Translations under genes and position numbers: made by a program
Origin: Clostridia bacterium
GTDB taxonomy: Bacteria; Bacillota; Clostridia; Oscillospirales; CAG-272
Assembly: GCA_017416205.1 (NCBI GenBank)
Contig: JAFQDC010000072.1
Location: forward strand, 65,874 to 129,873
Length of the DNA: 64,000 bases
Direction: 5' to 3'
Shown: positions 44,521 to 64,000 of the stretch, piece by piece
Position numbering within the stretch: position 1 is the first letter of the stretch
How the letters are laid out: every line of letters starts with the position of its first letter
The notes under the pieces: model-generated
The model's input: the letters and a program-made list of their open reading frames with translations, nothing else
The model's database searches: none
Told to the model about the DNA's origin: nothing

Positions 44521-44557
44521 AGAAATAAAAATCACCCCCACCGACGAGGTGGGGGTG
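44521..44557 (-). terminator. strong intrinsic terminator ending the long minus-strand gene train
   Basis: A 10-bp GC-rich stem CACCCCCACCtcgtcGGTGGGGGTG on the minus strand is followed by ATTTTTATTTCT, 20 nt after the stop at 44577. Confidence 0.8.
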
Positions 44558-44576
44558 TAGTGTTGAAAGAGAAAAA

Positions 44577-46760
44577 TTACTTGGAGGTCATTCTTCTCTT
44601 TCTGATGATTATAACTGTTGCCATACCGCAAAGTGCGATCATAGCTGCGATCATAACGATCACGAAGTTATCGCCTGTAGCAGAGGAGCCGCCGTTAAGG
44701 TTAACGTCGGAGCCGTTAGTGTTGCCGCCGTTGTTGTTGTCAGCGTTGCCGCCGCCGATAATGTTGCCTGCTTCACCCTCAAGGTAGTAGCAAGCGAACA
44801 TCCAGCAGTCTTCAAGGTCGCCGCCAACCCAAACGGAGTCTCCGTACCAACCGAGGCTTGTTCCTGCCTTCTTGAATACAGCGATAAGGTCGTCGGTAAG
44901 GGGATAGAGGCCTGTTTCCTCGTCCATGCACTCGAGGTATTCGATCATAGCGATAGTGAAGTCGTATACCTTAACAACCTCGTCGCCCTCGTAGATAAGC
45001 TCCTTGAGCTGACCGTAGCTGTTTGCAGCCTCGAGAGACATGAGTGTGTCGTTGAGATCTGCATAGAGGATGGGGCCGTCAGCGCTGTTGAGGTGGTAAT
45101 AGCCGTCCTCGCCGAGAACTGCTGTATCTACTGCAGCATCGAATGTATCAACGTAGAGAAGATCGTCAGCATTGCCTGTGAAGTCAAATGCCTCGGGCTT
45201 CTTTGCATTTTCGTGATATTCGCGGGGGATCTCCTTGATCACAACCTCTTCATAGTCAACTGTTACGTTTGCAGTTCCGTCAAGTGTGAGAACTGCAACC
45301 CAGATAGACTGACCAACTCCTGTGCAGAGCCACTCGAAGGAGTTTTCTGTAACAACTCCCTCGGAGATATAGTCGCCACTTTCGCCTACGTTCACCCACA
45401 TACCGTTGGTGCTTACGAGACCGATAAGGCCGTTTGCGCATGTGAATGTATACTTACCTGTGTTTTCAGGCTCGAATGTGTAGAGAGTATAGGGATAGAA
45501 GGGATCTACGGGATAATCGTTAGTACCGAGAACGAGATATCCGTCGTTATGAATGAAGTTGCACTCGGGAGTTTCGTCGCCGCTGCCGCCTTCGTCACCA
45601 CCGATGTCGCCGCCGCCGATGTCATCACCGCCGCCTTCACCGTTCTCTCCTGCAACGAAGCTGAGAGTCCAGTTAACTGTTCCCGCGGGATTTGCCCACA
45701 TATTAGCGGGATCATAGGTTGCAACGAAGATAGTGAGAACGTCGCCGGGCATTACGCCGATCTCCTCAGAGGAAACAACGGGATCGTCATCAGACCAGTG
45801 CATATCGCCGTAAATATATCCGCCGTCAGCCTTTTCTCCGTTGATGCTATACTGCCAGCCGGAGGCATCGTTCATAGTAATAGTAGCGGTGCCTTCTTCT
45901 GTAGCTGTCCACTTATAGTAGTGTCCCTGGTTGCCCTCTTCAAGAGAAGCGGAATGATCGCCTGCCTCGATATTTTCGGGAGCACCCATGGAGCCAACGC
46001 CAGCAAAGCTAACGCTTATGTTTGCAGTACCCTCGGGATTTGCCCACATATTTTCGGGGTTATAGGTTGCAACAAAGATCTGAAGCTCATCGCCTGCAGA
46101 TACTGCAACTTCTTCGTAATACACAGGCTCTGCATCGTCGCTGTAGTTATAGTTGCCGTATGAGCCCTTTGTAAGGTTGTTTACAAAATAGAGCCAGCCA
46201 ACATCGTTATAGTCAGCATCGTAAGCACCTGCACCGATCATAAATACACCGTCAGCGGGAGCTATGAGGGAGTACCAATGACCCTCGTTGCCGGCTTCGA
46301 GAGCTGCCTCAACATATGCTCCGAGAGCGCCGCCGTAGGGGTTTACCTGAAGCTCGATAACCTCAGGGTTATCCATTGTACCGTACTGGATATCACCGCC
46401 GCCTGTAAGTGTGAGCTTAATGGTGAGAGCCTCTGTATCGTTATTCTGGATCTGGAATGTGTCAGCACCTGTAACCATGGTAAGCTCTGTTGCTGCATTA
46501 TATGTCTGTCTGCAGTACCAGAAGAAGTAGTTCTGGCTTGATGCCTCGACTACATTTGCTACGGAGCCGTTGCAGTTGTTTACTTTAACGTATACGCCGC
46601 TTTCTGCGGGAACGTTAACGGTTATAGCTTCTGTTGCTGTATTATCCAACAGATAGGGATTTTCGTATGTACCGAGAGCAGCGTCCTCAGCAAATACGAC
46701 AACTGATATTGTTGAAGCAAGAACTGCCAATACCAGAAGGATGCTTAAAACCTTTTTCAT
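44577..46760 (-). CDS. surface protein (727 aa): signal peptide, tandem beta-sandwich modules, Cys-pair YYH...CYY module, Gly/Asn linker and C-terminal TM anchor
   Basis: It has the signal peptide MKKVLSILLVLAVLAS...FAED and an internal duplication (GDELQIFVATYNPENMWANPEGTANISVSF vs GDVLTIFVATYDPANMWANPAGTVNWTLSF). The C-terminus is FVIVMIAAMIALCGMATVIIIRKRR, with no LPXTG. The RBS is AAGGAG. Confidence 0.7.
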   Translation of the reverse strand: MKKVLSILLVLAVLASTISVVVFAEDAALGTYENPYLLDNTATEAITVNVPAESGVYVKVNNCNGSVANVVEASSQNYFFWYCRQTYNAATELTMVTGADTFQIQNNDTEALTIKLTLTGGGDIQYGTMDNPEVIELQVNPYGGALGAYVEAALEAGNEGHWYSLIAPADGVFMIGAGAYDADYNDVGWLYFVNNLTKGSYGNYNYSDDAEPVYYEEVAVSAGDELQIFVATYNPENMWANPEGTANISVSFAGVGSMGAPENIEAGDHSASLEEGNQGHYYKWTATEEGTATITMNDASGWQYSINGEKADGGYIYGDMHWSDDDPVVSSEEIGVMPGDVLTIFVATYDPANMWANPAGTVNWTLSFVAGENGEGGGDDIGGGDIGGDEGGSGDETPECNFIHNDGYLVLGTNDYPVDPFYPYTLYTFEPENTGKYTFTCANGLIGLVSTNGMWVNVGESGDYISEGVVTENSFEWLCTGVGQSIWVAVLTLDGTANVTVDYEEVVIKEIPREYHENAKKPEAFDFTGNADDLLYVDTFDAAVDTAVLGEDGYYHLNSADGPILYADLNDTLMSLEAANSYGQLKELIYEGDEVVKVYDFTIAMIEYLECMDEETGLYPLTDDLIAVFKKAGTSLGWYGDSVWVGGDLEDCWMFACYYLEGEAGNIIGGGNADNNNGGNTNGSDVNLNGGSSATGDNFVIVMIAAMIALCGMATVIIIRKRRMTSK

Positions 46761-46814
46761 GTTTTTCTCCTTAAGAACTATATGAATTAATTGCTTTCAA
46801 ACAATTACTCGGTT

Positions 46815-46843
46815 ATTGTAGCACAATAGAGTGCCGGTTGCAA
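46815..46843 (-). promoter_or_regulatory. candidate internal promoter (TTGCAA-17 nt-TACAAT with TG extension) in the only sizeable gap of the gene train
   Basis: The minus strand reads TTGCAAccggcactctattgTGcTACAAT, about 55 nt upstream of the ATG at 46760. Confidence 0.35.
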
Positions 46844-46861
46844 TAGAAAAATAAATTTAAA

Positions 46862-47902
46862 TTAAATGAATTTTCCTACCCAGGTCATATTGAGGGCAGG
46901 TCTGTTATTTCTTCTGTCAGGCTTTGCTCCCACATTAATAATGAGCTCATCGCCTGCATTGACCTGCATCTCTATGTATGCGCCGTTTGCATCTTCTGCA
47001 AGATCAGCTTCGCTTGTTCTCTGGGCGGAATTGCGGTTATTGGTGATCATCATAATGTAATCCGCATTCTTCTGAGTAACGTAGAAGCGTATCGTACCTG
47101 CTTTTTCTGCGTAGTACTTATAGAAGTAACCGTCATCGTCTCCTGCGGGAAGAGTGAGAGCAACGGGAGCGCCCATTTTTGTTACGAGCAGGGGATTTGA
47201 CTGTGTACCTGTAAGATTTGTAAACACGAGGGTAAAGGATGCTGCAGCGCCGCCTGTGTTACCGATCTCAAGAGTGATGAAATCACTTGCGAGAGCTGCG
47301 GGAGCTACAAATGCAACAACACCGTTCTGAGCGTTATAGCGAACGCCGTTGCAAACGACGTATGCTGCGGGGCTGTTAATTGTAACGTACATACCGCCTA
47401 TACGCTGAATGCTGTAGAAGAGGGACTTGCCCGCAGGAACCGCTACTGTTGTAACAGACATACTGTTTGTTCCTACGGTAGGGATCTCGAGATAGGGATT
47501 ATCCTTGGAGCCCTGACCCAGTATCTCCTCGCCTGAGGGATTGGTTACGGGAGCATCTGTAACAGGGGTGGTAACGGGATTCTGGTTAACTACAGGAGCG
47601 GTCGTATCGGGAGCGGTTGTTTCAGCCTCGGTGGTCTCAGCTTCTGTAGTTTCGGCCTCAGTGGTTTCTTCCTCTGTTGTGTCAGCCTCTGTAGTATCCT
47701 CGGCTGTCGTATCTTCCTCAGTAGTATCGTTCTGAACGATAGTTGTATCGTCGGGCTTATTGTCATCCTTATCGTTATCGTCAATGTTTCCGACAACGAT
47801 ACAGATCGCCACGATTATAGCAATTATAAGAACAAGAGCTATACCTGCAACAATAAGCAGTCTTTTATCAAGGGCTTTAAGCTTATCGAGCAAGGACTTC
47901 AT
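46862..47902 (-). CDS. N-terminally anchored surface protein (346 aa) with a Thr/Glu-rich linker and two beta-sandwich-like modules
   Basis: It has a TM anchor at aa 15-38, a (TTEAE)n linker and NPY/NPL-initiated modules resembling those of the 727-aa protein. Confidence 0.65.
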   Translation of the reverse strand: MKSLLDKLKALDKRLLIVAGIALVLIIAIIVAICIVVGNIDDNDKDDNKPDDTTIVQNDTTEEDTTAEDTTEADTTEEETTEAETTEAETTEAETTAPDTTAPVVNQNPVTTPVTDAPVTNPSGEEILGQGSKDNPYLEIPTVGTNSMSVTTVAVPAGKSLFYSIQRIGGMYVTINSPAAYVVCNGVRYNAQNGVVAFVAPAALASDFITLEIGNTGGAAASFTLVFTNLTGTQSNPLLVTKMGAPVALTLPAGDDDGYFYKYYAEKAGTIRFYVTQKNADYIMMITNNRNSAQRTSEADLAEDANGAYIEMQVNAGDELIINVGAKPDRRNNRPALNMTWVGKFI

Positions 47903-47904
47903 GA

Positions 47905-48324
47905 TCAGCCTACCTTTGAAATCTCGAGAGTGTACTCAGTTGCGCCTGCTTCAAGGTAGATCTCACGTGCGCCTGTGTATTCATAGCCTTCGGGACAGGA
48001 CATTACGGAGAGCTTGTGGCCTTCCTCAACTGCAACGTTGAAGAGAGCGATACCCTTATCATCGGATCTTGCGGGAACGCAAGCATCCTTGCAGATCTGA
48101 ACGATAACGCCGGGAACGACGTTGCCGTCACCGTCAACGATAGTTACCTTGAAGCTCTTTGCAGCCTCAGTTGTATCTGCAGCTGTTGTATCAGCGGGCT
48201 TTTTGTCTGCAACAGTTGTATCAGCTACAGTTGTGTCTTCTTCCTTGTTTCCGTTACAAGCGCAAAGGCCAAAGATCATGCAGCCAACGAGTATAAGAGC
48301 GAGAAGAATCTTAATGTTTTTCAT
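47905..48324 (-). CDS. small lipoprotein (139 aa) with a (ADTT)n linker and prealbumin/CarboxypepD_reg-like beta-sandwich
   Basis: It has the lipobox GLCAC. FKVTIVDGDGNVVPGVIVQICKD...SDDKGIALFNV matches the module that opens the three upstream genes. Confidence 0.65.
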   Translation of the reverse strand: MKNIKILLALILVGCMIFGLCACNGNKEEDTTVADTTVADKKPADTTAADTTEAAKSFKVTIVDGDGNVVPGVIVQICKDACVPARSDDKGIALFNVAVEEGHKLSVMSCPEGYEYTGAREIYLEAGATEYTLEISKVG

Positions 48325-48342
48325 AATAATCTTTCCTTTCAG

Positions 48343-49200
48343 TTAATGTTGATTATCGGGAATATCTTCGATATTTCTGATCGTAGTTTGAGTGTAGCTT
48401 TCAGATGTGAAGAATTCAAATATCCTTTCGAATACGCCTTCTTCTGTTACCATGCCCTTATGTATCATAGACACGGTGCCGTATCTGTCAATGACTACGG
48501 TGGTGGGATAGGCTGTGAGCTTCATAGCCTTTTCCCAGGCGATATCGGCCTTTGCCATAGGGAAGGTAAGACCGTTGCTTTTTGCAAACTCGGATATGCT
48601 TTGTTCCGTACCGTCAACGGGATTGAGGGCAACAAGCGCAATATCCTCGCTGTATTTGCAAAAAGCCTTTTCAAGATAGGGGAACTCGGTTTTACAGGGG
48701 CCGCAGTTCATAAACCAGAAGTTCAGAACAACTGCCTTTTTCGTTTCAAGAAGCTTTGAGAGGGTGTGCTTTTCGCCGTTACAGTCAGTCACTTCAAAGT
48801 CGAGAAAGACGCTGCCCAGGGAAAACACAGTATTATCAAGGCTTTCCTTTGGGAGAAGCTTTGCTTCAAGGATGATATCGGTGCTGTCGGAATCCACAGG
48901 ATAATGATCCTTTGCAGTATAACCGAGAGGGGATTCCTTGAGGGCAGCGTAGTAGGTGCCCTCAAGGGCTGTAAATGTAATTTTTCCGTCAGTGTCTGTA
49001 GTTGAAGCCCAGACAAGCTTTGAAAGATCTTCGTCCTCGAAAACGTTGATGACAACGCCTGCAAGAGGCATACCGCTGTCACCCGTAAGGGTAATGGTAT
49101 AGGGGATCCTTTCAGTTTTGTCCGAGTCCTTTGCGCATCCCGAAAAAGCAAGTCCGGAAAGCAAGAGGACAAGGAGGATTATAAAGCTGAGCTTTTTCAT
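48343..49200 (-). CDS. lipoprotein: CarboxypepD_reg-like beta-sandwich plus TlpA/ResA-like thioredoxin (CGPC)
   Basis: It has the lipobox AFSGC, YTITLTGDSGMPLAGVVINVF...TDTDGKITF, then VVLNFWFMNCGPCKTEFPYL...YPTTVVIDRYGTV, a typical thiol-disulfide oxidoreductase fold. Confidence 0.8.
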   Translation of the reverse strand: MKKLSFIILLVLLLSGLAFSGCAKDSDKTERIPYTITLTGDSGMPLAGVVINVFEDEDLSKLVWASTTDTDGKITFTALEGTYYAALKESPLGYTAKDHYPVDSDSTDIILEAKLLPKESLDNTVFSLGSVFLDFEVTDCNGEKHTLSKLLETKKAVVLNFWFMNCGPCKTEFPYLEKAFCKYSEDIALVALNPVDGTEQSISEFAKSNGLTFPMAKADIAWEKAMKLTAYPTTVVIDRYGTVSMIHKGMVTEEGVFERIFEFFTSESYTQTTIRNIEDIPDNQH

Positions 49201-49207
49201 GTCTTTA

Positions 49208-50455
49208 TCAGCCTGCGTAGCAGCACATAAGGAGCCACGCGATCTCTGTATTGATGGTAGAGTCGTTATTTCCGTCCATATCCTTGAAGATATAGCCGTG
49301 GCCGTCTATATCCCACCAGCCTGCATGGTCGCCGTGCTGCTGGATGATATACTTAAGATCCTCTGTGAGGGGGTAAACGCCTTCGTTCTCGTCAGCGCAT
49401 TCGATATACTTGGAAACGCAGTCCGTATAATTCTCACGCTTTACGAAATTCTCGTAGTCCTTGCCCTTACCGTCGTAGAAGTACTTAAGGATACCCTGCT
49501 TTTTGATGATGGTGCCGAAGCAGGCGATATAGTCGCAGTCCTCTGTGAGACGAACAAGAACAAGGGGGCCGTCCTCGCTTCCCAGGTGGTAGAACTCGTC
49601 ATTTTCGTTATAAACCAGCTTGTAAGTGTCGGTAGCGGCTGTAAGATCAAACTCCTTAAGCTCTGTTCCCTCGGGAAGAGTATAGATATCCATTTCGTGG
49701 GTAGCCTTGTATACCTCCCAAGGCTCATCCTCGATGGTCTTCTTGGGGTCGCCGAGGCGGTTGATGGCAAGAACGGTGTTTGCGGTCTTGTCGTCCTTTG
49801 AGTCGATACCGATAACGTAAGTGGCAGTACCGCCGTCGCCTGAGCCGATCATATCTGCTCTGACGGTGATGGTGAAGCTGTTATCCTTGATCTCGGCAGT
49901 ATTCTGAGTCTGAACGAAGTGAGGAGCGCCGTAGTAGCCTATCTCGACCTTTGCAGAGTCCTTGATGGAGAACTCATATTCGCCTGCCTGAGTGGGGGAG
50001 AAGAGAAAATAAGTTCTTGCGTTCTTTTCGAGAGTAACGTAGGAGCAGCCAACGGATACGGAATAAACGTCGTGCTCATTACCTTCAGCGTGAAGAACGG
50101 TGGTCTCTCCGACAGGAACATTAGCAAGGATAACGTCAGCTTCGGTTTCCTTTGCAGTTACCTTGGCTCCGCCCTCGTAATGGTAAGCCTCAGCGTTATC
50201 AGTAAAGCTGAGCTCAACGTCGTAGTCGCCCTTTGCCAGGACCTTTTCTGCAACGCCGTCCTTGTTAACAGCCTGCATAGCGACCTTTTCGCCGTTCTGC
50301 ATAAACTGAACGACGATACCGGTAGTATAAGGATTGCCGAGAGCATCCTTAACGCTTACCTTGTATGTTGCCTCGCCTCCTGCAGAGCAGGAAGCGAGGA
50401 GAAGTGCTGACAGAAGAAGGGTAGTTGCAAGAATGAGAGTAATAATTCTTTTCAT
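49208..50455 (-). CDS. lipoprotein (415 aa): CarboxypepD_reg-like module, beta-sandwich and Cys-pair YYH...CYY module
   Basis: It has the lipobox LLLASC, YKVSVKDALGNPYTTGIVVQF...NKDGVAEKV, and the C-terminal FYHLGSEDGPLVLVRL...YIECADENEGVYPLTEDL...IAWLLMCCYAG. Confidence 0.7.
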   Translation of the reverse strand: MKRIITLILATTLLLSALLLASCSAGGEATYKVSVKDALGNPYTTGIVVQFMQNGEKVAMQAVNKDGVAEKVLAKGDYDVELSFTDNAEAYHYEGGAKVTAKETEADVILANVPVGETTVLHAEGNEHDVYSVSVGCSYVTLEKNARTYFLFSPTQAGEYEFSIKDSAKVEIGYYGAPHFVQTQNTAEIKDNSFTITVRADMIGSGDGGTATYVIGIDSKDDKTANTVLAINRLGDPKKTIEDEPWEVYKATHEMDIYTLPEGTELKEFDLTAATDTYKLVYNENDEFYHLGSEDGPLVLVRLTEDCDYIACFGTIIKKQGILKYFYDGKGKDYENFVKRENYTDCVSKYIECADENEGVYPLTEDLKYIIQQHGDHAGWWDIDGHGYIFKDMDGNNDSTINTEIAWLLMCCYAG

Positions 50456-50479
50456 AATTTTAACCTCGATTCCAAAAAA

Positions 50480-53479
50480 TTATTTACCGAGGTGATCGTA
50501 GTAGTAGCAGAGCTTCAGCCAGGAGTGTTCAACATCGTCGAAGGTGTACTTATCCATAAGCTCCTGAAGGATCTCAGCAAGGCGCTCATCAACTACTACG
50601 CAGCCGTCAAGCTCAGTGCCGGACTTATCGATCTTATCAACGTAAGCCTTGATATCGTCGGTAAGGTCGGGGCCCTTGCCGTGGTAACGGCCGTCGAAAA
50701 TGTCGTCGATCTGATAGAGATCGCAGTTTGCGTCGTAATCCTCGCCCCAGAGCTTTTCAAGATATTCCTTAGTCTTTTCAACGTCGCCGTCGTTCTGCCT
50801 AAGGTATGCAAGGATCTCGCCGTCAGTTTCAGACTTTGAGAAGTCAAAGCCGCCCATCTGGATCATTTCGAGGATAGACTGGCTGAATACGGGTGTGAGG
50901 CCTGTGAAGTCGCAGTAGATGAGGCTTCCGTCCTCGGAGTAGTACTTGCCGTCACGAAGAACGGGAGTGATACCGCCTGTGATAATATCGTAGATCTCCT
51001 CTCCTGTTGCGTCGGAGTCGTATGTGAAGTATCCGGGAGCGCAGAGGCGGAAGAGGTCGTAGGAGGGAGCAATGAACTCTACGTCATAGTAGATGTAGCC
51101 TGTTGCGTATACGTCCCAGAACGCCATATTGATATAGTATGCAGTTCCTGCTTCCATGTAGTATACCATAGAGCAGTTGATATCGTCGGTGTACATTCTT
51201 TCATCGTGCTCATATGTGAGGAGAACGTTGCTGTTTCCGTCGAAGATCCAAGCATCGATACCGTCCTGATAGTCGCTCTTGGAGGTGAAGCGGTAAACGC
51301 CGGACTCTGTGGGAACGAACTTTGCGAATGTACCTCTGGGGATGATAGCGCGGTCATAGTAGAAGTAGTTTGTGGAGACGTCCTTGCCAAGTGTTACGGT
51401 ATATGCAGAGGAGGTGGAAAGTCCCTTGATGGGGTCCTCAAGCTGCTTTCCGGAGGGGCCGTATGCCTGGAAGTACTTACACATCTTGAGCCACTCGTTG
51501 GGGTCGTCGTCAAAGCCTGCAACATCAGCTACCTGCTTGAGCATCTCAGCAAGCTCGCGGTTGACCGTGCAGATACCCTTGAGGGAAGCATTGGATGCAT
51601 AGGAGAAGTACTGAACCATTCCAAGGCCGCCGTCTTCCTTCTTGTTGTAAAGGCTGATACCGTCCTTATCTGCCTCGCCGTTGTAAACTATATTCTGAAC
51701 GTAGTCCTCTTCGTTGAAGGGGGTGTAGTCCTGAAGATCTGCAAGGAGGAGGGGACCGTCTGCAGTTCCTACGTGGTAGTAGCCGTCAGTCTCATTGAAT
51801 ACAACGTTAACGTACTTATATGTTTCGCCGTCGTCATCGGTGGTTGCCGCATATCTGGGAAGGTATGTGTCAACGTCGATATCGGAAGAGGAAACGACTC
51901 TCATATTGTCGATGTAAACAGTGTCCTCGCCCTCGGCGCCGTCGGAGTCCTTAAGGTAGCAGAATGCAACCTCGTATGTGCCGTCCTTATCTGCAACGAG
52001 AGGATAGCAGGACTTCCATGCTTCCTTTTCGTCAACGCCGGAGATCTGGAATACGTCCTCGCCGTCAACGATAACGTAGAGCACGTCGCAAAGTCGCTCG
52101 GAGGAGATGAGGTAGTCAAATCCGAGAGCCTGACCTGCCTTAAGGGTAACGTCTGCGTACATAATGGTGGTAGTATCGTCGATACCTATGTTGGATGCCT
52201 TGATGCAGTCTGCGCCAAGCTTTTCAGCCTTGATGAAGGGCCAGATATACTCAGCGTTTTCGTCCTCTGTTTCGGGACGGTAGGTAATATCTATGTTGCC
52301 CTTGTTGATAGTAGCCGCGATCTCCTCGCTTGCGGGCATTTCAACGTTGGGCTTGATAAGAGTAACCATCTCATGGATGGACTGGCAGATCTTCTGCTCG
52401 TAGTCCTCAGCTGTGAAGTGGTCAAACGCGCAAACCCAGGGGCGCTTGGATGTTACCGCACCAACCTCGATCACGGAGATTACGCCGTAACGGTCAATGA
52501 AGACACTTGTGGGGTAGCCCTGGATAGAGAATGTGTTGGACCAGGAGGAGGGGCATGTTGCAACAATGAAGGGAAGCTTTTGCTGATTCTGGAATGCCCT
52601 TACAGCTTCAACTGTCTGGTCCATAATAAGGTTATTGAGAGCGATGATCTCAATGTCTTCCTTATAGTCCTCATAAACGTCGGAAATGATGGGAAACTCG
52701 GAAACACAGGGGCCGCAGGTAGAGTACCAGAAGTTGAGCATTACCATCTTCTTGTCCTTGAGGATCTCGGAGAGAGTAATGTCCTCGCCGTCGATGGACT
52801 GTACGGTAAAGTCGTACATAACGTCGCCGGCCTTAAGAGTTGCTGTGGAGAGGTCCTCGTCTGTGATAAGAGCGGAGGAGAGCTTGATGGAAGCCTTTTC
52901 GCCGTCGAAGGCGTAGCTTTCCTTAACGTCGTATCCCTTGGCAACGCCGGATAGAACGATAGCGTACTTGTCGCTCTTTGCGAGCTTGAAGCTTACCTTA
53001 CCCTCGCTGTCGGTCTTGGCGTAGTCGGACATATCCTCAAGCTTATCGTTTGTATAAACGTATACGTCAATGCCTTCAAGGGCCATACCGCCCTTGGTTT
53101 TGACGGTAACGGAATACTCAGTCTTTTCGCCGGCAGCGCCGCCGTCGCCCTCACCGTCGCCGTCGCCTGTGGATATGCCCTTAAAGAGTGCGATACCACC
53201 GAAGACAGCTCCTGCGATAAGGAGTGCGCCGAGAATGCATGCAATAATGATGATGGGAAGCTTCTTGGATTTTTTCTTAGGCTCCTTTTCTTCGGGAGCC
53301 TTGGGAGGTTCGATGGGGGCACTTTCCTTGGAGGTCTCGTCCTCCTTTTCAGGTGCCGCATTTTCCTCAGGCTTTTCAGCCTCGGGCGCGGTTGCTTCCT
53401 CTGCGGTTTCTGTAGCCTTTTCCTCTGCGGATTCAGCTACCAGCTCCTCAGAGGAGTTGATATCTTTTTCTTTTTCCAT
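50480..53479 (-). CDS. TM-anchored multidomain surface protein (~1000 aa): acidic cytoplasmic N-terminus, CarboxypepD_reg-like module, TlpA-like thioredoxin (CGPC), jelly-roll-like domain and two Cys-pair modules
   Basis: It has a TM helix at aa 78-103, YSVTVKTKGGMALEGIDVYVY...TDSEGKVSF and MVMLNFWYSTCGPCVSEFP...YPTSVFIDRYGVI. The Cys-pair modules are YYHVGTADGPLLLADL...GICTVNRELAEML...WLKMCKYF and ...GCVVVDERLAEIL...WLKLCYYY. The ORF track starts at 53491. I prefer ATG 53479 because GGAG lies 6 nt upstream of it. Confidence 0.75.
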   Translation of the reverse strand: MEKEKDINSSEELVAESAEEKATETAEEATAPEAEKPEENAAPEKEDETSKESAPIEPPKAPEEKEPKKKSKKLPIIIIACILGALLIAGAVFGGIALFKGISTGDGDGEGDGGAAGEKTEYSVTVKTKGGMALEGIDVYVYTNDKLEDMSDYAKTDSEGKVSFKLAKSDKYAIVLSGVAKGYDVKESYAFDGEKASIKLSSALITDEDLSTATLKAGDVMYDFTVQSIDGEDITLSEILKDKKMVMLNFWYSTCGPCVSEFPIISDVYEDYKEDIEIIALNNLIMDQTVEAVRAFQNQQKLPFIVATCPSSWSNTFSIQGYPTSVFIDRYGVISVIEVGAVTSKRPWVCAFDHFTAEDYEQKICQSIHEMVTLIKPNVEMPASEEIAATINKGNIDITYRPETEDENAEYIWPFIKAEKLGADCIKASNIGIDDTTTIMYADVTLKAGQALGFDYLISSERLCDVLYVIVDGEDVFQISGVDEKEAWKSCYPLVADKDGTYEVAFCYLKDSDGAEGEDTVYIDNMRVVSSSDIDVDTYLPRYAATTDDDGETYKYVNVVFNETDGYYHVGTADGPLLLADLQDYTPFNEEDYVQNIVYNGEADKDGISLYNKKEDGGLGMVQYFSYASNASLKGICTVNRELAEMLKQVADVAGFDDDPNEWLKMCKYFQAYGPSGKQLEDPIKGLSTSSAYTVTLGKDVSTNYFYYDRAIIPRGTFAKFVPTESGVYRFTSKSDYQDGIDAWIFDGNSNVLLTYEHDERMYTDDINCSMVYYMEAGTAYYINMAFWDVYATGYIYYDVEFIAPSYDLFRLCAPGYFTYDSDATGEEIYDIITGGITPVLRDGKYYSEDGSLIYCDFTGLTPVFSQSILEMIQMGGFDFSKSETDGEILAYLRQNDGDVEKTKEYLEKLWGEDYDANCDLYQIDDIFDGRYHGKGPDLTDDIKAYVDKIDKSGTELDGCVVVDERLAEILQELMDKYTFDDVEHSWLKLCYYYDHLGK

Positions 53480-53512
53480 ATTGATCTCCATTCTAAAAAT
53501 TTAGAGGGGTCG

Positions 53513-53755
53513 TCAGATTAACCAGAAAATGATCGTAATGATAAGATATATGACAACGAGAAAGCCGATAACCACGAGCATGGGGAGGAACATCATCTTA
53601 ACTGCATTCCAGTAAGTGTTCCAGATATCCTTCGGGCTTGAGGTCGTTCCTTTTTTTGCCCAGGCGAATCTGTCGTGTATTCCCGACATATCCGCAATGG
53701 TGCGACCGTCGTCGATATAGGTGATCTTTTCCTTTTTCTGCTTCTTTTTACTCAT
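53513..53755 (-). CDS. small tail-anchored membrane protein (80 aa)
   Basis: It has a Lys-rich N-terminus and a single C-terminal TM (FLPMLVVIGFLVVIYLIITIIFWLI). The RBS is AAAGGTG. It is wedged between the ABC ATPase gene and the 1000-aa protein gene. Confidence 0.5.
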   Translation of the reverse strand: MSKKKQKKEKITYIDDGRTIADMSGIHDRFAWAKKGTTSSPKDIWNTYWNAVKMMFLPMLVVIGFLVVIYLIITIIFWLI

Positions 53756-57989: not shown

Positions 57990-58017
57990 TTCTTTTTGTT
58001 TTTACAGTACTTAAAAA

Positions 58018-60588
58018 TCAGTCAGCAAATTCAACTTCCCAGATACGGTCAAGGGGAGAAGAATAGGGGTTCATATCGTCCTCTGCGGGAAGGCTGTCAG
58101 AGCTGATAACCTTGGAGTTGTAAGCATAGAGAACGCTTCTCTGGTATACGGGGAGCTCGATAGCAAGGTCGAGGATCTCGCCCATTGCTTCCATATAAAG
58201 CTCGCTTCTTTCTTCCTGATCGTTTGTCTCACGAGCCTCGTCGATAAGCTCGGAGAGATCGTCGAGGATCTTAAGCTCTTCGCTTGTACCGCTGGTCTTA
58301 AGGTAGTTATAACCCCATGCGAGAGTACTTGTTGCAGTGGAATCCTTGTGGTATACCTGATAGAGGTCAGGGTCAAGAGCGCTGGACCAAGCAGCAGCCC
58401 AAACCTCAAGAGAACCTGTATTGATCTTTGTAAGTGCCTGAGTGTCGCAAACTACTTCAACGTCCCAACCCATATCGTTGAGAAGAGCAGCCGCGTCACG
58501 GAATACCTTGTATGTGGGGTGATCCTGGAGAGAGGAGCCTGCGATAGTGAACTTAACCTTAAGGTCGGAGTCACCCTCGGAAACGCCTGCCTCCTGCATA
58601 TATTTTTCGATATTTGCTTTTGCGATATCTTCGCTCCATGCGCCGAGAGGAGGATAATCCTTGCCGTTGTCTGTTGCGTCAGCGCCCTGAGGATAAGCCC
58701 AGCTTACCTTGGACATAGGCCAGAAGATCTGCTCTGCAGTACCTGCGCGGTAGTAGTCGAGAGCGAGAGATGTGTTCATTGCGCACATGATAGCCTTACG
58801 AAGGTTGATATCATTTACCTTTGCGGAGTTGATACCGATATAACCGTAACCGAGCTGATCTGTGGAGAGGGTAACCATACCCTTGGAGCCGAGCTTCTCG
58901 AGCTTTTCGTAGTTATCTGTTGTAAGAGCGGGGGAGATGTAGTGAACGTTACCTTCCTCGAGAGAAGCGATAGCGTTCTGAGAGGATACTACCTGATAGC
59001 GGATCTTTTCGATCTTAGCGTTTTCAAGCTCTGCGCCAACTGTTTCGAAGTTCTCGTTAGCCTTGAAGTAAACAACGTTGTTTGTGTAGAAAGCGCTTTC
59101 GGAGGGAGAATCGGAGTTCTTTGTGTCAGTTGCCTTGTATGCACCTGCGCCCATGGGGATCTTGATGTTTCTTGTGGACTGGATGATATCTGTCATGAAG
59201 TCAAAGCTTGCGAACTCAACGCCGAACTTATTGTTCTCGATATCAACGCCAACCTTTGAACCCTCGCCGTAGTAGTGCTGAGGAGCGATGGTAAGAGCGA
59301 AGTTCCAGATAGCCTTGGGGTCGATGCCGTCGATTGTGATGGAGAGAACGTCGTACTCGCCCTCTGCCTTAACTGTACCGTCGTCATTGTGAGCGGAAGC
59401 GATTGTGTACTCTGTGCCGTTTACAGTGATCTTCTCGCCAGCCTTATCTGTGTGGCCGAGAGAAACGATACCGGAGATTGAGGGAACAGCAAGTGTACCG
59501 TCATCGGAAACGTTTTCGTGAAGGATAACTTCCTTAGCCTTAGCTGTGAACTCTGTTGTAAGAGTGTTAGCTGTTGCCCAGTACTGGAGAATGATGTTAA
59601 GCTCTCGAGCGATCTTATCGTTGAAGATGTAGTCGATAGCCTTTTCCTTGGAGTCGATGGAGGAGGGGTAAGCAGGAGTGAGCTCCTTGATCTTTGTACG
59701 GTCGATCTTACCGTCTTCGCCTTCCTCGTACTCTACCTCAACGTAGCCCTCTGTGTACATGAAGCAGAAGATCTCGTCCTTGAATTCCTCATAGGACTTG
59801 TAGGGCTCGTCGATGTAGGATTCCTGTGCGCCGAGGTAGTCGTTTTCAAGCTCTTCCTTGAAAAGCTTGAGAGCGTACTCGTAGTCAGCGAGAAGGTCCT
59901 TTTCTGTAACGCTGTCAGCGTCGTTGGAGATAGCAGCCTTGTATCCGGAGCTTACGGAGTGACCCTTGATAGCGTCAACCATAGCGTCGTAGCCAACTTC
60001 CTTTGTGGAGGAAGCCTTGAGCTCGGAGTTGAAGAGGTTTACAAGCTCGTTGAGACGAGCGGAGGCACGGTTGGATGCCTGAGAGGAGATAAGGTCGTCA
60101 GAGTCGTCACTTGCAGAACCTACAGTCTGAGTTCTGTACTCAGAAAGACCGAGGATGTCTGTGGAGTAAAGAGTGTTTGAGCCTGTGTAAACGGGGTCAA
60201 GATATACGTAGTAGTTGAAGAGGATATCTTCCATTGTAAGAGCTTCGCCGTCAGAGAACTTGATGCCGTTCTTGATTACGAAGTTATATGTTGTTGTATC
60301 GTCGTCGTTTTCAACGATCTCGTAGTCCTTAACGACTACTGCTTCGTTCTCACCGTATGCTACCTGAACCTTGCCGTCCTTATAGGTAGCACCGAGCATG
60401 CTTACCTGAGTCATGCTGACGATAGTTCCGTCAGGAGCGGATGTGTAGAAGAAGGGGTTAAAGAGTCCGTCGAGCTGCTCTGTCATAATAACGAAAGCAT
60501 CGGCGGAGCTGCCTGTGCATCCTGTAAGGGAGGATACCATACCTACGCACATAGCGCAGATAAGCAAAAGTGAAATAAGCTTTTTCAT
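58018..60588 (-). CDS. oversized (856 aa) family-5 ABC substrate-binding lipoprotein
   Basis: It has the lipobox SLTGC. The N- and C-terminal parts resemble peptide/nickel SBPs (LFNPFFYTSAPDG..., ...WAAAWSSALDPD). It is roughly 300 aa longer than typical OppA/DppA proteins. The RBS is AAGGAG. Confidence 0.85.
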   Translation of the reverse strand: MKKLISLLLICAMCVGMVSSLTGCTGSSADAFVIMTEQLDGLFNPFFYTSAPDGTIVSMTQVSMLGATYKDGKVQVAYGENEAVVVKDYEIVENDDDTTTYNFVIKNGIKFSDGEALTMEDILFNYYVYLDPVYTGSNTLYSTDILGLSEYRTQTVGSASDDSDDLISSQASNRASARLNELVNLFNSELKASSTKEVGYDAMVDAIKGHSVSSGYKAAISNDADSVTEKDLLADYEYALKLFKEELENDYLGAQESYIDEPYKSYEEFKDEIFCFMYTEGYVEVEYEEGEDGKIDRTKIKELTPAYPSSIDSKEKAIDYIFNDKIARELNIILQYWATANTLTTEFTAKAKEVILHENVSDDGTLAVPSISGIVSLGHTDKAGEKITVNGTEYTIASAHNDDGTVKAEGEYDVLSITIDGIDPKAIWNFALTIAPQHYYGEGSKVGVDIENNKFGVEFASFDFMTDIIQSTRNIKIPMGAGAYKATDTKNSDSPSESAFYTNNVVYFKANENFETVGAELENAKIEKIRYQVVSSQNAIASLEEGNVHYISPALTTDNYEKLEKLGSKGMVTLSTDQLGYGYIGINSAKVNDINLRKAIMCAMNTSLALDYYRAGTAEQIFWPMSKVSWAYPQGADATDNGKDYPPLGAWSEDIAKANIEKYMQEAGVSEGDSDLKVKFTIAGSSLQDHPTYKVFRDAAALLNDMGWDVEVVCDTQALTKINTGSLEVWAAAWSSALDPDLYQVYHKDSTATSTLAWGYNYLKTSGTSEELKILDDLSELIDEARETNDQEERSELYMEAMGEILDLAIELPVYQRSVLYAYNSKVISSDSLPAEDDMNPYSSPLDRIWEVEFAD

Positions 60589-60625
60589 TTTTTCTCTCCT
60601 TTATAATATATATGTAGAATTTTGC

Positions 60626-61954
60626 TTATTCTTTTTCAGAAACGGTCACTGTGTTACCGTTTGTGGTGACTATTATCTTATCGGGCTCATCGCCTGCAGA
60701 CTGTGCCTTGATATCGGCTGCAGCGATGACGGAGGGGTCACCCATACCGCAAACAAGGCCGATGGAATAGTCATCAACGCCGAAATAGCAGGAGGAGTCG
60801 ATCTTGAGTGTACTTGTCTTGATCGCTACGTTAGTGATCTTTGCCTCATTTGAGAGAGTACCTGCGAAGAGGCCGAAGCTTGAGCCTACTACACGTGTAC
60901 CGCCCTTAACGGTGAAGGTAACGTTTTCGAAGGTAAGGTCGGAGATCTTTGCGCTTTCGGTGATATTACCGAAGAGACCGGAATTGACCTTTGAGTTGTT
61001 GGTCTGGGTAGCTTCGATATTCTTCATGGTGTGGCCGTTTCCGCGGATCTCTCCGGTGAAGTTGCCGTACATGAATGAAGTGGGCCAGATCTCATCTGCA
61101 AAGTCAAGGTCCGCAAGGATCTCGTAGTTTCCGTTGACGCTTGCGTTGTCGAGGAACTGCTCTGTGTTATAGATGCGGAACCATTCGCCCTCAGTCCAGT
61201 CAACGTAGAGCTTCATAACGTGGTCCTTTGCCGTACCGGTTTCGTAGTCGATAACGCCGGTATGGAGGAAGGACTCGTCAGAAAGCTTTTCTGTAAGATC
61301 GCTGTCAAGGAATGCTTCGTTGAACGTATATCCCTTTCTTTCGGGGAAGTCATACATTTCTATAGCGCCTGTTTCCTCGTCCCATGCGGGAAGCTTGATG
61401 CTTTCAACCACCGTGGGGTCGAAGACGTAATTGGAAAGAAGCTCTCCGCTGTCAGCGGCGTAGAACTCTATCTCAAAGAGGGGAACCCATGCAGCGTAAA
61501 GAGTAAGCACGGGCTTATCTGCGGAATGCTCCTTTGCGGGGTCGACCGCAAGGGTATCCTTTTCGAAATCCCATTTATCGGAGTAGGAATAGGTGGGATT
61601 TCCGTCTGAGTCCTTGCCGGTCTCAGTACGCTCAGCGTACCAGCCTGCAAGGAAATAACCGTTTTTGATTGCCTTGAATGCATCGTTGCCACGATTCTTG
61701 TCATCGGGAGAGATGAGATGTATCTCACAGTCTCCGTCAGAATTCTTGTCCATATTTGCAATGTTGAAGGAGTCAACGATCACGTAGGTATTGGTAGTGA
61801 AGACGCCTCCGTTAGCGTCATACTTGACGCTAACGGTATAGTCCTCAGAGTTATTGATCTCATAGGGGGATCTTTCAAGGGCACAGCCTGTTGTGAAGGC
61901 GATGGCTGCTACTGTAAGCAGAGCCAGGAGTGCAATTCTGATCTTCTTATTCAT
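60626..61954 (-). CDS. surface lipoprotein with two Listeria-Bacteroides (InlB B-type) repeats and a beta-helix/GLUG-like C-terminal region
   Basis: It has the lipobox FTTGC. The repeats are YTVSVKYDANGG...GYFLAGWY...LTLYAAW and ...KGYTFNEAFLD...MKLYVDW, followed by GNFTGEIRGNGHTMKNI...SGLFGNI. The start was trimmed to ATG 61954, overlapping the upstream stop by 8 nt (ATGAATAA). Confidence 0.55.
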   Translation of the reverse strand: MNKKIRIALLALLTVAAIAFTTGCALERSPYEINNSEDYTVSVKYDANGGVFTTNTYVIVDSFNIANMDKNSDGDCEIHLISPDDKNRGNDAFKAIKNGYFLAGWYAERTETGKDSDGNPTYSYSDKWDFEKDTLAVDPAKEHSADKPVLTLYAAWVPLFEIEFYAADSGELLSNYVFDPTVVESIKLPAWDEETGAIEMYDFPERKGYTFNEAFLDSDLTEKLSDESFLHTGVIDYETGTAKDHVMKLYVDWTEGEWFRIYNTEQFLDNASVNGNYEILADLDFADEIWPTSFMYGNFTGEIRGNGHTMKNIEATQTNNSKVNSGLFGNITESAKISDLTFENVTFTVKGGTRVVGSSFGLFAGTLSNEAKITNVAIKTSTLKIDSSCYFGVDDYSIGLVCGMGDPSVIAAADIKAQSAGDEPDKIIVTTNGNTVTVSEKE

Positions 61955-64000
61955 TACAGTCTCCTTCTTCCTTCTCTTCTTCTGTTGTTTCTTCTGAAGC
62001 CGCTTCTGCAGCTTCCTTGACAGCCTCATCAGTCTTCTTTTCGGAGGGCTTCTTTGCCTTTTCCTTAAGAGACTTAACGAAAGCCATGAGCTTTTCGCGA
62101 TTCTTGTAACCGAAGAAGCTGAGCGCGGCAACGGCTGCAAGAGCCACTACTATAATAATGATAGAAATGATGATGCCGTCACCGTTTGTCTTTTTGTCCT
62201 CAGACTGATCATCCTTCTTGTTATCTTCCTTCTCGGCAGCCTCGAGAGCCTTGATACGCTGCTCTGCGCTTACCAGGTCGGAGTAGTTATTAACGAGAGC
62301 CTTCTGCTCGAGAGTTGCGATCTTTTCGTAAGCCTCTCTTGCGCTCTCAACGAGGGCCTTATCATTTGCTGAAACTCTTTCGGGGATAGCCTTGATAGCC
62401 TTGATAGCTTCAACGCTTGTCTTGTCGGGGGCTGCGGGACCGTCGATGCGGAGATCGAAGTACTGATCGCAGATGAATGAGTCATAGCACTCGCCGTTAA
62501 CGGGCTTGACCATTGTGATCTTATCCTCAACGTAGCCTACGTAGTCAACGAAGTTCGCGCCGTAGAATACGTTGGAGTACATACCGCCGGTAGCGTTCCA
62601 CATAAAGAAGGGAACGATCTCGAGAGGAGCGATGGTAACCTCGTTACCGTCGAAGTCCTCGTAGCTTCCGAAGTCTCCGGAGCCGGGGATGTTTTCGAGG
62701 CTACCGTAATGCTGGGGATCAAATTCTTCTTCGAACACGGGAACCGTGTAGCTTCCGAAGATCACCATATCAAGCTTTTCGCAAGCGTAGAACGCTTTGT
62801 GGCCGATAGATGTTGTAAAGAAGGGAAGCTTTACTCTGACAACGTCGCTTCCTGCGAATGCAAGAGCGGAGATACGTGTTGTATCCTCTGCAACTGCAAC
62901 GTCCGTAGTCTCAATACCTGCAAAGGTGATAAGCTCAAGACCTGCATTTGTCTTGCAGTAGAGTGAGCCGTCAATAACGGATACAGTGTCGGAAAGCTCG
63001 AAGGTGTAATTCTTAACTTCCTTTTCTGTTCCCTTGTTTTTGTCCTTTTCGATAACAGTTTCGAAGAAGGGCTCTACCTTACACATTGCGAAGGGGTTGT
63101 CGGAGAGCTTTTCAAGGTCCTCGCCGAGAGTTACCTTGAAGGGAGTGAGCTCTTCCTTCATGAAGGCGTTCTTTCCGATCACTGTAGCACCGCTAAGATC
63201 AGCCTCAGTGATAGCGTCGTATGCGAAGGCATAGTCGCCGATCTCGGATACGAACTTAAGGTTTTCAAGTGTTGCGAGAGGATCACAGTAGGAGAATGCG
63301 CCCTCGCCGATAACTGTTTCTTCCTCGGAGAACTTAACAGTGCCAAGGAGTCTATTGGAAACGAATGCGTACTTGCCGATCTCTTCGCTTCCGGAGATAT
63401 CTACCTTTTCAAGGCCGCACTCCATAAATGCGTACTCACCGATCTTTTCAACTGCTGTAAGGTTGATGTTCTTAAGAGCGTCGCAGCCTGCGAAAGCGTA
63501 CTGAGGAATCTCCTTGATCTCGGGACTCAGAACAACGTCCTTAAGGAGTCTGCAGTAGGAGAATGCATATTCTCCGATGCTTTCAGCGCTTGAAATGTCA
63601 ATGCTTGTGAGCTTGGGGCCGTGGTAGGAGTATCTGTACATACCGTCGCTTGTAACGTCGGCGATAGTCATATCCTGGTCCTTGCAGGAGTAGTAAACGT
63701 CACCGCTTATAGCGTAGTCACCGATCTTTTTAACCTTGGAGAGGTCGATGGACTTAAGGCTTGAGGTATTGTAGAATGCCATCTTTTCGATAACAGCGCC
63801 CTCGCCGAGGGTAACTGCCTCAAGGCTTGCGGCATTAGCAAATGCGTTTTCGCCGATAACGGCATTCTTACCGATGGTAAGAGAAGTAATGGGAGAGAAG
63901 AAAGTGTAGCGGAAGAGCTTCTTTTCGCCTTCCTTATATTCCTCTACCTTGAATGCGTTGTCCTTATTAAGGCTGAATGCGAACTTACCGATCTCGCAGT
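61947..64000 (-). CDS. BspA-type leucine-rich-repeat surface protein, C-terminal TM anchor (5' end outside window)
   Basis: It has repeating IGxYAFxxCxxLxxV/I units, and the frame stays open to the window edge (translation continues CEIGKFAFSLNKDN...). The C-terminus has a TM helix (IIISIIIIVVALAAVAALSFFGY) and a Lys/Glu-rich cytoplasmic tail. Confidence 0.7.
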   Translation of the reverse strand, partial: CEIGKFAFSLNKDNAFKVEEYKEGEKKLFRYTFFSPITSLTIGKNAVIGENAFANAASLEAVTLGEGAVIEKMAFYNTSSLKSIDLSKVKKIGDYAISGDVYYSCKDQDMTIADVTSDGMYRYSYHGPKLTSIDISSAESIGEYAFSYCRLLKDVVLSPEIKEIPQYAFAGCDALKNINLTAVEKIGEYAFMECGLEKVDISGSEEIGKYAFVSNRLLGTVKFSEEETVIGEGAFSYCDPLATLENLKFVSEIGDYAFAYDAITEADLSGATVIGKNAFMKEELTPFKVTLGEDLEKLSDNPFAMCKVEPFFETVIEKDKNKGTEKEVKNYTFELSDTVSVIDGSLYCKTNAGLELITFAGIETTDVAVAEDTTRISALAFAGSDVVRVKLPFFTTSIGHKAFYACEKLDMVIFGSYTVPVFEEEFDPQHYGSLENIPGSGDFGSYEDFDGNEVTIAPLEIVPFFMWNATGGMYSNVFYGANFVDYVGYVEDKITMVKPVNGECYDSFICDQYFDLRIDGPAAPDKTSVEAIKAIKAIPERVSANDKALVESAREAYEKIATLEQKALVNNYSDLVSAEQRIKALEAAEKEDNKKDDQSEDKKTNGDGIIISIIIIVVALAAVAALSFFGYKNREKLMAFVKSLKEKAKKPSEKKTDEAVKEAAEAASEETTEEEKEEGDCNE

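Follow-up and report, generated by a model that had tools for sequence, protein, structure and literature searches.

The proteolytic systems of lactic acid bacteria and streptococci cut proteins outside the cell and import the resulting peptides: an anchored proteinase (PrtP, ScpA or SpyCEP) of the Peptidase_S8 type, with a PA insertion and an fn3_5 domain, works with a complete OppABCDF-type importer. Here we describe a locus that appears to belong to this group and to add to it a thioredoxin-based arm at the cell surface. It lies in a stretch of 64,000 nucleotides (the window) from a Clostridia bacterium of the GTDB lineage Oscillospirales, CAG-272 (assembly GCA_017416205.1, contig JAFQDC010000072.1, positions 65,874 to 129,873), in which a train of fourteen minus-strand genes occupies positions 44,521 to 64,000. 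Judged by its domains, the upstream half of the train is a member of the cell-envelope proteinase (CEP) and Opp systems. It differs from the lactic acid bacterial and streptococcal examples in that proteinase and Opp genes share one operon, that the proteinase has approximately 1000 aa of BspA-type leucine-rich repeats (LRRs) and a C-terminal transmembrane segment (TM) in place of LPXTG, and that no PrtM/PrsA-type maturase occurs among the listed genes. The lactic acid bacterial systems, in turn, lack the thioredoxin-fold surface proteins and the iron-sulfur (FeS) electron-supply pair found here.

Thioredoxins outside the cytoplasm, and the membrane proteins that supply them with electrons, are known from several other systems. 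ResA and StoA of Bacillus subtilis and TlpA of Bradyrhizobium all act on specific endogenous client proteins; they take part in maturing cytochrome c, making the spore cortex or assembling Cu centres, and they need CcdA or DsbD for this. The thioredoxins of our locus fall by profile in the same subfamily and share the N-terminal membrane anchor and the CxxC motif, whereas none of these partners and clients is seen in the locus. Proteins of the NapH/NosR/MauN type pass electrons to extracytoplasmic enzymes. The FeS protein described below resembles NapH, MauN and NosR in its Fer4_5 CX3CP motifs, polytopic membrane part, two [4Fe-4S] motifs and proposed outward electron feed, and differs from them in being fused, through an extra TM, to a thioredoxin and in being paired with a CD1871A-type CXXC membrane protein. 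With DsbD, CcdA and ScsB it would share the job alone, that is, bringing cytoplasmic reducing power to extracytoplasmic thioredoxin-fold proteins; there is no sequence relationship, and the carrier here would use FeS clusters and CX3CP/CXXC motifs, not a DsbD-type cysteine pair. The Etrx1/Etrx2-CcdA1/2-MsrAB2 system of Streptococcus pneumoniae has surface-exposed thioredoxin lipoproteins (PMC3914529). It resembles our locus in that TlpA-like thioredoxins are anchored to a Gram-positive membrane and face outward; the present locus, however, contains neither CcdA nor MsrAB, has a NapH-like FeS protein as partner, fuses its thioredoxins to prealbumin-like and novel domains, and combines them with proteolysis and peptide uptake. 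In the literature, we found no description of a NapH-thioredoxin fusion, of "CD1871A" or of a locus joining protease, thioredoxin and oligopeptide uptake; only the Etrx papers were related.

A reading of the window from its letters alone (the sequence-only reading) had proposed a capture-and-processing apparatus in which thiol-disulfide chemistry feeds a peptide importer. This proposal is strengthened by the CEP, by the FeS-thioredoxin pair, and by an independent cluster of thioredoxin, FeS protein, Opp importer and M24 peptidase genes; it has to be amended in that the train is not one indivisible unit, and its mechanism is deduced from domains and synteny. The reading that we favour, at slightly less than an even chance of being right, is a surface system that would reduce, cleave and import disulfide-bonded proteins, with electrons from an FeS protein instead of CcdA/DsbD. 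All the evidence consists of gene content, domains, predicted topology and synteny, the comparison genomes being metagenome-assembled genomes (MAGs). Gene calls, as well as the genes beyond the window, are taken from the source contig (locus L081), a sequence of 161,745 bp in an ENA metagenome assembly that was identified by an exact match to the solute-binding protein described below.

The predicted proteinase and its Opp importer

The operon is headed by a gene whose domains identify its product as a cell-envelope proteinase. The window holds the C-terminal 683 aa (61947-64000; all genes of the train are on the minus strand), which consist of BspA-type LRR_5 repeats (170 bits), a stalk and a C-terminal TM anchor. 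What had been labelled an LRR protein is actually the tail of a 2438-aa subtilisin-type CEP that is cut by the window end: the full gene (1326-8642 of the source contig) encodes Peptidase_S8, PA, fn3_5, Big_2 and LRR_5 domains, and its N-terminal Peptidase_S8, PA and fn3_5 part lies beyond that end. The Peptidase_S8 domain (PF00082) scores 147 bits, the PA insertion 53.8 bits (residues 477-545) and fn3_5 56.7 bits (residues 704-830), and the Asp, His and Ser catalytic motifs are intact (DTG at 212, HGTH at 286, GTSMA at 604). Within the first 850 aa, residues 197-850 align with the solved structures of C5a peptidase/ScpA, SpyCEP and CEP (E 1e-64 to 1e-56). The protein has 30 Cys and an LRR_5 region of approximately 1000 aa; its TM (2363-2381) is followed by a long charged tail, and an LPXTG sortase anchor is absent from the C-terminus. 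Against the LPXTG-anchored peptidase subfamily NF040553 it reaches 260 bits, compared with a cut-off of 1400. The next gene, for a 442-aa lipoprotein (60626-61954), overlaps the CEP stop by 8 nt and is always preceded by the CEP gene; its former label of an InlB-repeat protein finds no support in Pfam or NCBIfam.

The five transporter genes had been recognised correctly. The first encodes an 856-aa OppA-like lipoprotein, a family-5 solute-binding protein (SBP; 58018-60588), which matches SBP_bac_5 (PF00496) at 96.5 bits, the cut-off being 32.4, over residues 471-748 and an N-terminal piece. Approximately 340 extra aa separate the N-terminal and middle segments (residues ~130 to ~470), and the best PDB match is AppA of B. 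subtilis (2e-11). It is followed by a 330-aa permease with BPD_transp_1 (permease 1, 56997-57989), a 349-aa permease with OppC_N and BPD_transp_1 (55932-56981), and two ATPases with ABC_tran and oligo_HPY, one of 384 aa (54775-55929) and one of 334 aa (53778-54782; 15807-16811 of the source contig), the start of the second overlapping the first by 8 nt. The full set of permeases and ATPases is also present at three further loci (L083, L087 and L088). An 80-aa tail-anchored membrane protein, p80 (53513-53755, recognised by hydropathy and synteny), is assigned to the same unit because it follows the second ATPase even where the genes downstream of it in the window are located elsewhere. By family, the importer is of the Opp/Dpp type; oligopeptide transport is predicted, the ligand being left open by the SBP insertion and the conservation of the transporter.

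This conservation is unusual. Median identity to the window proteins is 92% for the permease (permease 1: 24 loci), 85-87% for the ATPases and 82% for the SBP; among the downstream proteins, each designated below by its length, it is 66% for p1003, 60% for p80, 54% for p415 and 40-45% for p285, p139, p727 and p346. Between genera (loci L004-L073), permease 1 ranges from 89 to 95% and the SBP from 80 to 87%. SBP homologues number more than 3330, the top 120 being 83-100% identical. This gradient points to a very strong constraint on the transporter and a fast divergence of the outermost proteins. Recent horizontal transfer was rejected as the cause of the high Opp identity, because identity drops from 92% to ~40% along the same operon. 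Within the genus, the closest genome (L001) is 98% identical to the window in tryptophanyl-tRNA synthetase but 56% in p727, 58% in p285 and 64% in p346; this fast divergence of the outermost surface proteins could reflect diversifying selection.

Predicted surface thioredoxins, a probable iron-sulfur partner and a novel module

Two of the downstream proteins contain a thioredoxin domain. The larger, p1003 (50480-53491), has an N-terminal TM (80-98), a prealbumin-like domain (120-206), a TlpA/ResA-like thioredoxin (207-370), an unassigned segment (373-545), a first copy of a novel module (546-700), a beta-sandwich (701-812) and a second copy of the module (813-1003). The other, the lipoprotein p285 (48343-49200), consists of a prealbumin-like (SpaA) domain and a thioredoxin (116-285) with CGPC at 166-169. 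Both match AhpC-TSA, Redoxin and Thioredoxin above cut-off, and both thioredoxins are predicted to be anchored outside the cell, by a lipobox in p285 and by the single TM in p1003. Their profiles suggest the TlpA/ResA/Etrx kind, failing every equivalog cut-off: they score 76-85 bits against ResA (NF002854; cut-off 170), 42-54 against StoA (210) and 24-26 against TlpA (230), and the pneumococcal Etrx structures 4hqz and 2yp6 are among their best PDB matches. The CxxC of p1003 (C259-x-x-C262) is invariant in 34 orthologues, as are seven further Cys; of its 18 Cys, the conserved ones include C495, C511, C641/C671, C773 and C964/C995, which are spaced alike in both modules. The active-site dipeptide varies: p1003 of the window has CGPC (259-262, at ~52706-52717) and most orthologues have CSWC, a difference that may correspond to different redox potentials. 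Among the called genes of six neighbourhoods, to which this search was confined, no CcdA/DsbD or Msr gene and no Pfam domain of either family is listed.

The candidate electron source lies beyond the window. Across a 200-nt AT-rich region, two genes diverge from the CEP gene; this region holds 8 promoter-like sites compared with 2.5 expected. The best matches to a CodY box in the divergent region of 16 loci reach 10-12 of 15 positions and are equalled by most composition-matched shuffles, so that CodY regulation was rejected. The first divergent gene encodes a 258-aa protein with five predicted TMs and the invariant C-terminus TKA(V/I)NICTECIGLG. Its residues 222-258 match NF040920, "CD1871A family CXXC motif-containing protein" (34.1 bits; cut-off 32), a model of 38 residues and thus much shorter than the protein, and the NICTECIGLG-type CXXC is invariant in 13 homologues.

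The second gene encodes a protein of approximately 480-490 aa, which we call FeS-Trx: a NapH-type ferredoxin part, a further TM and a ResA-like thioredoxin with WCTPC. The ferredoxin part has a Fer4_5 match of 62.9 bits, CX3CP at residues 99, 159 and 213, CxxCxxCxxxC(P) motifs at 241-273 and four TMs. It stays below the family cut-offs (TIGR02163, 79 bits against 213; NapH equivalog, 61 against 234), and no NapG, NapA, Mau or Nos partner genes are found near it. Because a single predicted TM separates the ferredoxin part from the thioredoxin, the two would lie on opposite membrane faces, and we infer, by analogy with NapH, that the clusters are inside and the thioredoxin outside. This FeS membrane protein probably powers the surface thioredoxins.

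A metagenome scan yielded at least 595 relatives of FeS-Trx, of which 79 kept loci show a NapH-like FeS part. In at least 60 of these 79, a TlpA-like thioredoxin is fused to the NapH-like part or adjoins it, in either order, a fraction that is biased upward in that one of the two scan patterns was the thioredoxin motif. Among the relatives kept, only the closest sit beside a CEP gene. One other, unrelated metagenomic lineage (L102, at 9602-18553, L104 and L105) keeps the two parts in separate genes, one for an anchored thioredoxin of 246 aa and one for a NapH-like protein of 277 aa. They come just after V-type ATPase genes, and immediately downstream of them are the genes of another importer of the Opp type (an SBP_bac_5 protein of 544 aa, two permeases and two oligo_HPY ATPases) and of an M24 peptidase. 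This cluster is independent support for a link between the redox pair and peptide uptake.

The remaining downstream proteins are p415, a lipoprotein (49208-50455) with a prealbumin-like domain, a beta-sandwich resembling collagen-binding and pre-peptidase C-terminal (PPC) domains, and the novel module (240-415); p139, a lipoprotein (47905-48324) with a T/A/D-rich linker and one prealbumin-like domain; p346 (46862-47902), with an N-terminal TM, a T/E-rich linker and an unassigned beta-rich ectodomain; and p727 (44577-46760), with a signal peptide, unassigned beta-rich repeats, the novel module (~550-690), a G/N-rich stalk and a TM (701-719). The earlier claim that all six share shuffled modules holds for five of them. 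The prealbumin-like domain occurs in p1003, p415, p285 (2e-13) and p139 (~1e-3 to 3e-4 against the p415 and p1003 domain profiles), the thioredoxin is common to p1003 and p285 (3e-45), and the novel module of ~170 aa is present in four copies, in p415, in p727 (2e-17) and twice in p1003 (7e-9 and 6e-8). As a sharer of modules p346 was rejected, its profile E values being 0.13-0.46 and its likeness confined to the low-complexity linker of p139; its position in the block is conserved.

Neither Pfam nor NCBIfam gives a notable match for p415, p727, p139, p80 or the 442-aa lipoprotein, and p415 and p727 have no PDB sequence match. AlphaFold and Foldseek, which the sequence-only reading had suggested for each module, were run on p415 and on the novel module, and returned fold matches for the front part of p415. 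The AlphaFold2 model of p415 (predicted local distance difference test, pLDDT, 90) begins with a prealbumin/CarboxypepD_reg-like sandwich, continues with another that is similar to the collagen-binding domain of ColG and to PPC domains (Foldseek probability 1.0, E ~3e-4), and ends in the alpha/beta module. Modelled alone, the module reaches a pLDDT of 87 and a predicted template modelling score of 0.83, and no PDB fold matches it (best Foldseek E = 1.1). The residues that are invariant across its paralogues include a C-terminal W-x3-C-x-Y. Searching with a profile of the module gives 898 clusters at 50% identity; their proteins are 400-1800 aa long, and 591 of the clusters match at E <= 1e-10. 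The module is tied to thioredoxin chemistry because the two are fused in its long relatives: all seven long module proteins examined also carry N-terminal thioredoxin and prealbumin-type domains, and in two loci (L085 and L086) the position of p285 is held by a fusion of 1380-1816 aa that combines thioredoxin, several CarboxypepD_reg domains and the module.

Two smaller points concern these proteins. Segment 373-545 of p1003 gives no PDB profile match and only noise in Pfam (E >= 0.02), and a jelly-roll or carbohydrate-binding-like fold, guessed from its motifs, was thus left without support. In a variant of the window arrangement (L087, 21990-22580), the p285 homologue is followed by a protein with Dockerin_1 and thioredoxin domains, which suggests the attachment of a thioredoxin to a cohesin scaffold and places thioredoxin chemistry outside the cell once more.

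Two units of one locus in gut Clostridia

In the window, all fourteen co-directional genes of the sequence-only reading are present, and the recomputed junctions agree with its figures: -8, 37, 28, 15, 2, -8, 22, 21, 24, 7, 18, 2 and 101 nt, where the junction between p80 and p1003 is 21 nt by the source-contig calls and 33 nt with the NCBI start of p1003. The train ends, as had been claimed, at the sole strong intrinsic terminator of its strand (44557-44533), with a 10-bp stem of 8 GC pairs, a U-run and a dG of -21.9 kcal/mol (z = -5.9; 0 of 200 shuffles equally stable). Terminator-like sites overall are not enriched (19 compared with 18.7 expected), and the others on the minus strand are weak and intragenic. 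Promoter-like sites in the window are likewise at shuffle level; one of them, a possible internal promoter of the sigma-70 type in the 101-nt gap before p727 (46815-46843, minus strand; TTGCAA-17-TACAAT with TG), is a consensus match only. Rfam matches no RNA element in the train or upstream of the CEP gene.

Every non-transporter product had been described as extracytoplasmic and anchored, and hydropathy and reading of the N-termini support this. A signal peptide with a lipobox Cys is predicted for the SBP, the 442-aa lipoprotein, p415, p285 and p139; by hydropathy, p1003 (80-98) and p346 (15-33) have an N-terminal TM, p80 and the LRR protein a C-terminal TM, and p727 a C-terminal TM (701-719) after its signal peptide. 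The term "Cys-rich" suits the downstream products only modestly, with 1.2-1.9% Cys in four of the six, 0.6% in p346 and 4.3% in p139.

A scan with p415, taking one genome per GTDB species, found 118 relatives; 80 loci, all from gut MAGs, were kept and searched with the window proteins by tblastn. Ca. Avispirillum is the closest of them, at 90% identity, and the others include Ca. Fimenecus, Faecousia, Acutalibacteraceae, Oscillospiraceae and Lachnospiraceae. Both candidate genera, when looked up, are Clostridia incertae sedis. More than 1338 homologues of p415 and more than 1072 of p1003 are all from uncultured Clostridia, as are those of the SBP, and they go by such names as "hypothetical protein", "TlpA family protein disulfide reductase" and "redoxin domain-containing protein". 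The downstream homologues are not scattered, an outcome by which the sequence-only reading would have been refuted: wherever the flank is visible, the gene directly before p415 is p1003 (73 of 73 loci), and p285 comes after p415 in 77 of 78, the usual order of the six-gene block being p1003-p415-p285-p139-p346-p727. In some lineages, genes like p139 or p346 are duplicated. A Faecousia/Lachnospiraceae variant (L056-L062, L064-L066, L069, L076, L078 and L080) carries, besides a further p415-like gene that has diverged (29-36% identity), as many as five p346-like genes in tandem.

The position of the block relative to the importer varies. In 25 of 56 informative loci, the Opp cassette and p80 are directly upstream of p1003, as in the window (type A). 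In at least 19 others, the block is followed by convergent genes for FeS-Trx and the CXXC protein, and in 16 of these the CEP gene comes next, starting within ~3 kb downstream of the block (type B). A type B contig of Fimenecus continues with CEP, a 441-aa lipoprotein, five Opp genes and p79, followed by unrelated genes. In type B, all 16 genes are thus found again, the six-gene block having shifted to the other side. In total, the block, the FeS-Trx pair and the CEP-Opp unit are clustered in at least four orders (L081 and L087; L008 with L083, and L089; L090; L098), and the pair is divergent from CEP in all four CEP-Opp units found via the SBP. By gene content and order, then, the train makes up most of a 16-gene locus that is conserved among uncultured gut Clostridia, in over a hundred of them. 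This locus is made up of two evolutionary units, one comprising CEP, lipoprotein, OppABCDF and p80 with the FeS-Trx pair, and the other p1003 to p727, which are usually, not always, adjacent. Their coupling is frequent and not obligatory, because the block also occurs without CEP and Opp genes nearby.

Some features of the window outside the train should also be mentioned. Just past the train terminator lies a perfect 12/12 sigma-70 consensus (TTGACA-18-TATAAT, 44446-44475, minus strand), downstream of which is the gene of a 140-aa polytopic membrane protein with no family assigned (44025-44447). A lysine riboswitch (Rfam RF00168, 84 bits; 39545-39687, minus strand) directly precedes an Na_H_antiporter gene of the NhaC type (37853-39550, minus strand), an ordinary, known pairing. 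Finally, an island of low GC (0.37-0.40 compared with ~0.49 around it) at ~34000-38000 contains four to five genes for small membrane proteins or lipoproteins without a family (34087-36600, plus strand), which come after a DUF4153 membrane protein (32430-34100).

Reduction, cleavage and import weighed against other readings

How might these proteins work together? We propose the following sequence of steps, in which the direction of electron flow, the substrate, the part played by the module and every biochemical step are deduced from the predicted domains and anchoring, and from the clustering of the genes: (i) the anchored proteins p415, p727, p346, p139 and p1003, with their prealbumin-like domains, collagen-binding/PPC-like sandwiches and novel module, would hold the substrate at the surface; (ii) the anchored thioredoxin domains of p1003 and p285 would reduce its disulfides; (iii) the outward thioredoxin of the NapH-like protein with two [4Fe-4S] clusters would re-reduce these thioredoxins, FeS-Trx and the multi-TM CXXC protein carrying cytoplasmic electrons in the place of CcdA/DsbD; (iv) the 2438-aa anchored subtilisin-type proteinase would cut the unfolded substrate; and (v) the dedicated Opp importer would take up the peptides. 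Thioredoxin reduction renders disulfide-rich proteins, for example protease inhibitors, digestible, and with FeS clusters of low potential as donors, thermodynamics favours the reduction of disulfides.

Several observations weigh against this proposal. All the genomes examined are MAGs. In four loci (L009, L049, L020 and L054), a six-gene (or five-gene) block stands between unrelated neighbours, without a CEP-Opp unit within 10 kb. The variation of the CxxC dipeptide leaves redox potential and direction open, and the scan for FeS-Trx relatives favoured thioredoxins from the outset. The module has no recognisable fold or catalytic motif, so that a binding role for it is a guess, and the PPC/collagen-binding likeness of p415 is structural and weak by sequence. 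Furthermore, the conservation of Opp exceeds what a generalist peptide importer would need and hints at one specific substrate.

The strongest of the other readings is self-maintenance, a version of the redox-maintained surface layer that the sequence-only reading had offered as its own alternative. Here, the thioredoxins and FeS-Trx would keep reduced, or isomerise, the exported cysteines of the apparatus itself, acting as dedicated biogenesis or quality-control factors of a cysteine-containing surface assembly. The exported proteins do hold conserved Cys (30 in CEP, 18 in p1003, and those of the module), the thioredoxin and the module are repeatedly fused in one chain, the block can occur away from CEP and Opp, and the nearest characterised relatives, ResA, StoA and TlpA, serve endogenous clients. 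However, this reading leaves unexplained why the electron-supply pair is tied to the promoter region of CEP-Opp and not to the genes of the Cys-bearing module; an unrelated lineage couples thioredoxin and FeS protein to another Opp importer and a peptidase without any module protein, and the Cys content of most members is just 0.6-1.9%. We regard self-maintenance as unlikely, though it deserves to be taken seriously.

It is less probable again that the locus acquires, by reduction, one specific small disulfide or thiol compound and not bulk protein. The candidates would be a cystine-bridged or glutathione-type peptide, or a host or dietary peptide, which CEP would free from a precursor, the thioredoxins open and Opp import. 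Among the known cargo of family-5 SBP systems are glutathione, nickel and other substances that are not peptides, and the exceptional conservation of the transporter relative to operon neighbours at 40-66%, the unusual insertion of the SBP, and the thioredoxin-FeS pair beside another family-5 importer in an independent lineage would all fit. In contrast, a multi-domain CEP of this size with LRR adhesin repeats, together with many beta-sandwich binding domains, looks directed at macromolecules, and the best match of the SBP is an oligopeptide binder.

An oxidative-stress defence of the Etrx/CcdA/MsrAB type, in which surface thioredoxins would repair oxidised surface proteins of an anaerobe sensitive to oxygen and so protect the protease and Opp, seems improbable to a marked degree. 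The Etrx structures among the best thioredoxin matches speak for it, but the called genes of the six neighbourhoods include no methionine sulfoxide reductase, peroxiredoxin partner or CcdA, and the many binding-type domains and the novel module would have no role. A chance adjacency of two operons without a functional relation, CEP-Opp and the six-gene block, is very improbable indeed. In its favour, the two units are separable and differ in relative order between genomes, and a promoter-like site precedes p727. Against it, they are neighbours in at least four arrangements, seen in many genera with the labels Oscillospiraceae, Acutalibacteraceae and Lachnospiraceae; they are joined here by a junction of 21 nt without a terminator, and both are linked to the same thioredoxin-bearing FeS protein.

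Returning to the system that would reduce, cleave and import, its proteolysis and peptide-uptake core is of a known kind; what is new is the undescribed reductive arm and the new-fold module, and the downstream half, which the sequence-only reading could not match to any described system, matches none in our analysis either. We see a fair, though clearly less than even, chance that this arm amounts to a new type of electron route across the membrane, and we give similar odds to the joint and more far-reaching proposal that (a) a new route, in which a NapH-like FeS protein fused or adjacent to a thioredoxin works with a CXXC protein, does the job of DsbD/CcdA in anaerobic Firmicutes and (b) there is a dedicated machine for extracellular reductive proteolysis, in which surface thioredoxins and a substrate module of new fold would make disulfide-rich proteins of host or diet accessible to an anchored subtilase and its private Opp importer.

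If the favoured reading is right, a large group of uncultured gut Clostridia of poultry, ruminants and humans would carry a purpose-built surface attack on disulfide-stabilised proteins. Ordinary proteases cope poorly with this class, to which mucins, immunoglobulins, defensins, protease inhibitors and many food allergens belong, so that such a system would matter for the way protein is fermented in the gut and for the interaction between host and microbe. For structural and functional studies, the module of ~170 aa offers a well-defined target. Separately, the fusion of an FeS protein with a thioredoxin, with its many metagenome relatives, would be a new answer to the question of how electrons are supplied outside the membrane in anaerobes without the classical DsbD/CcdA context.

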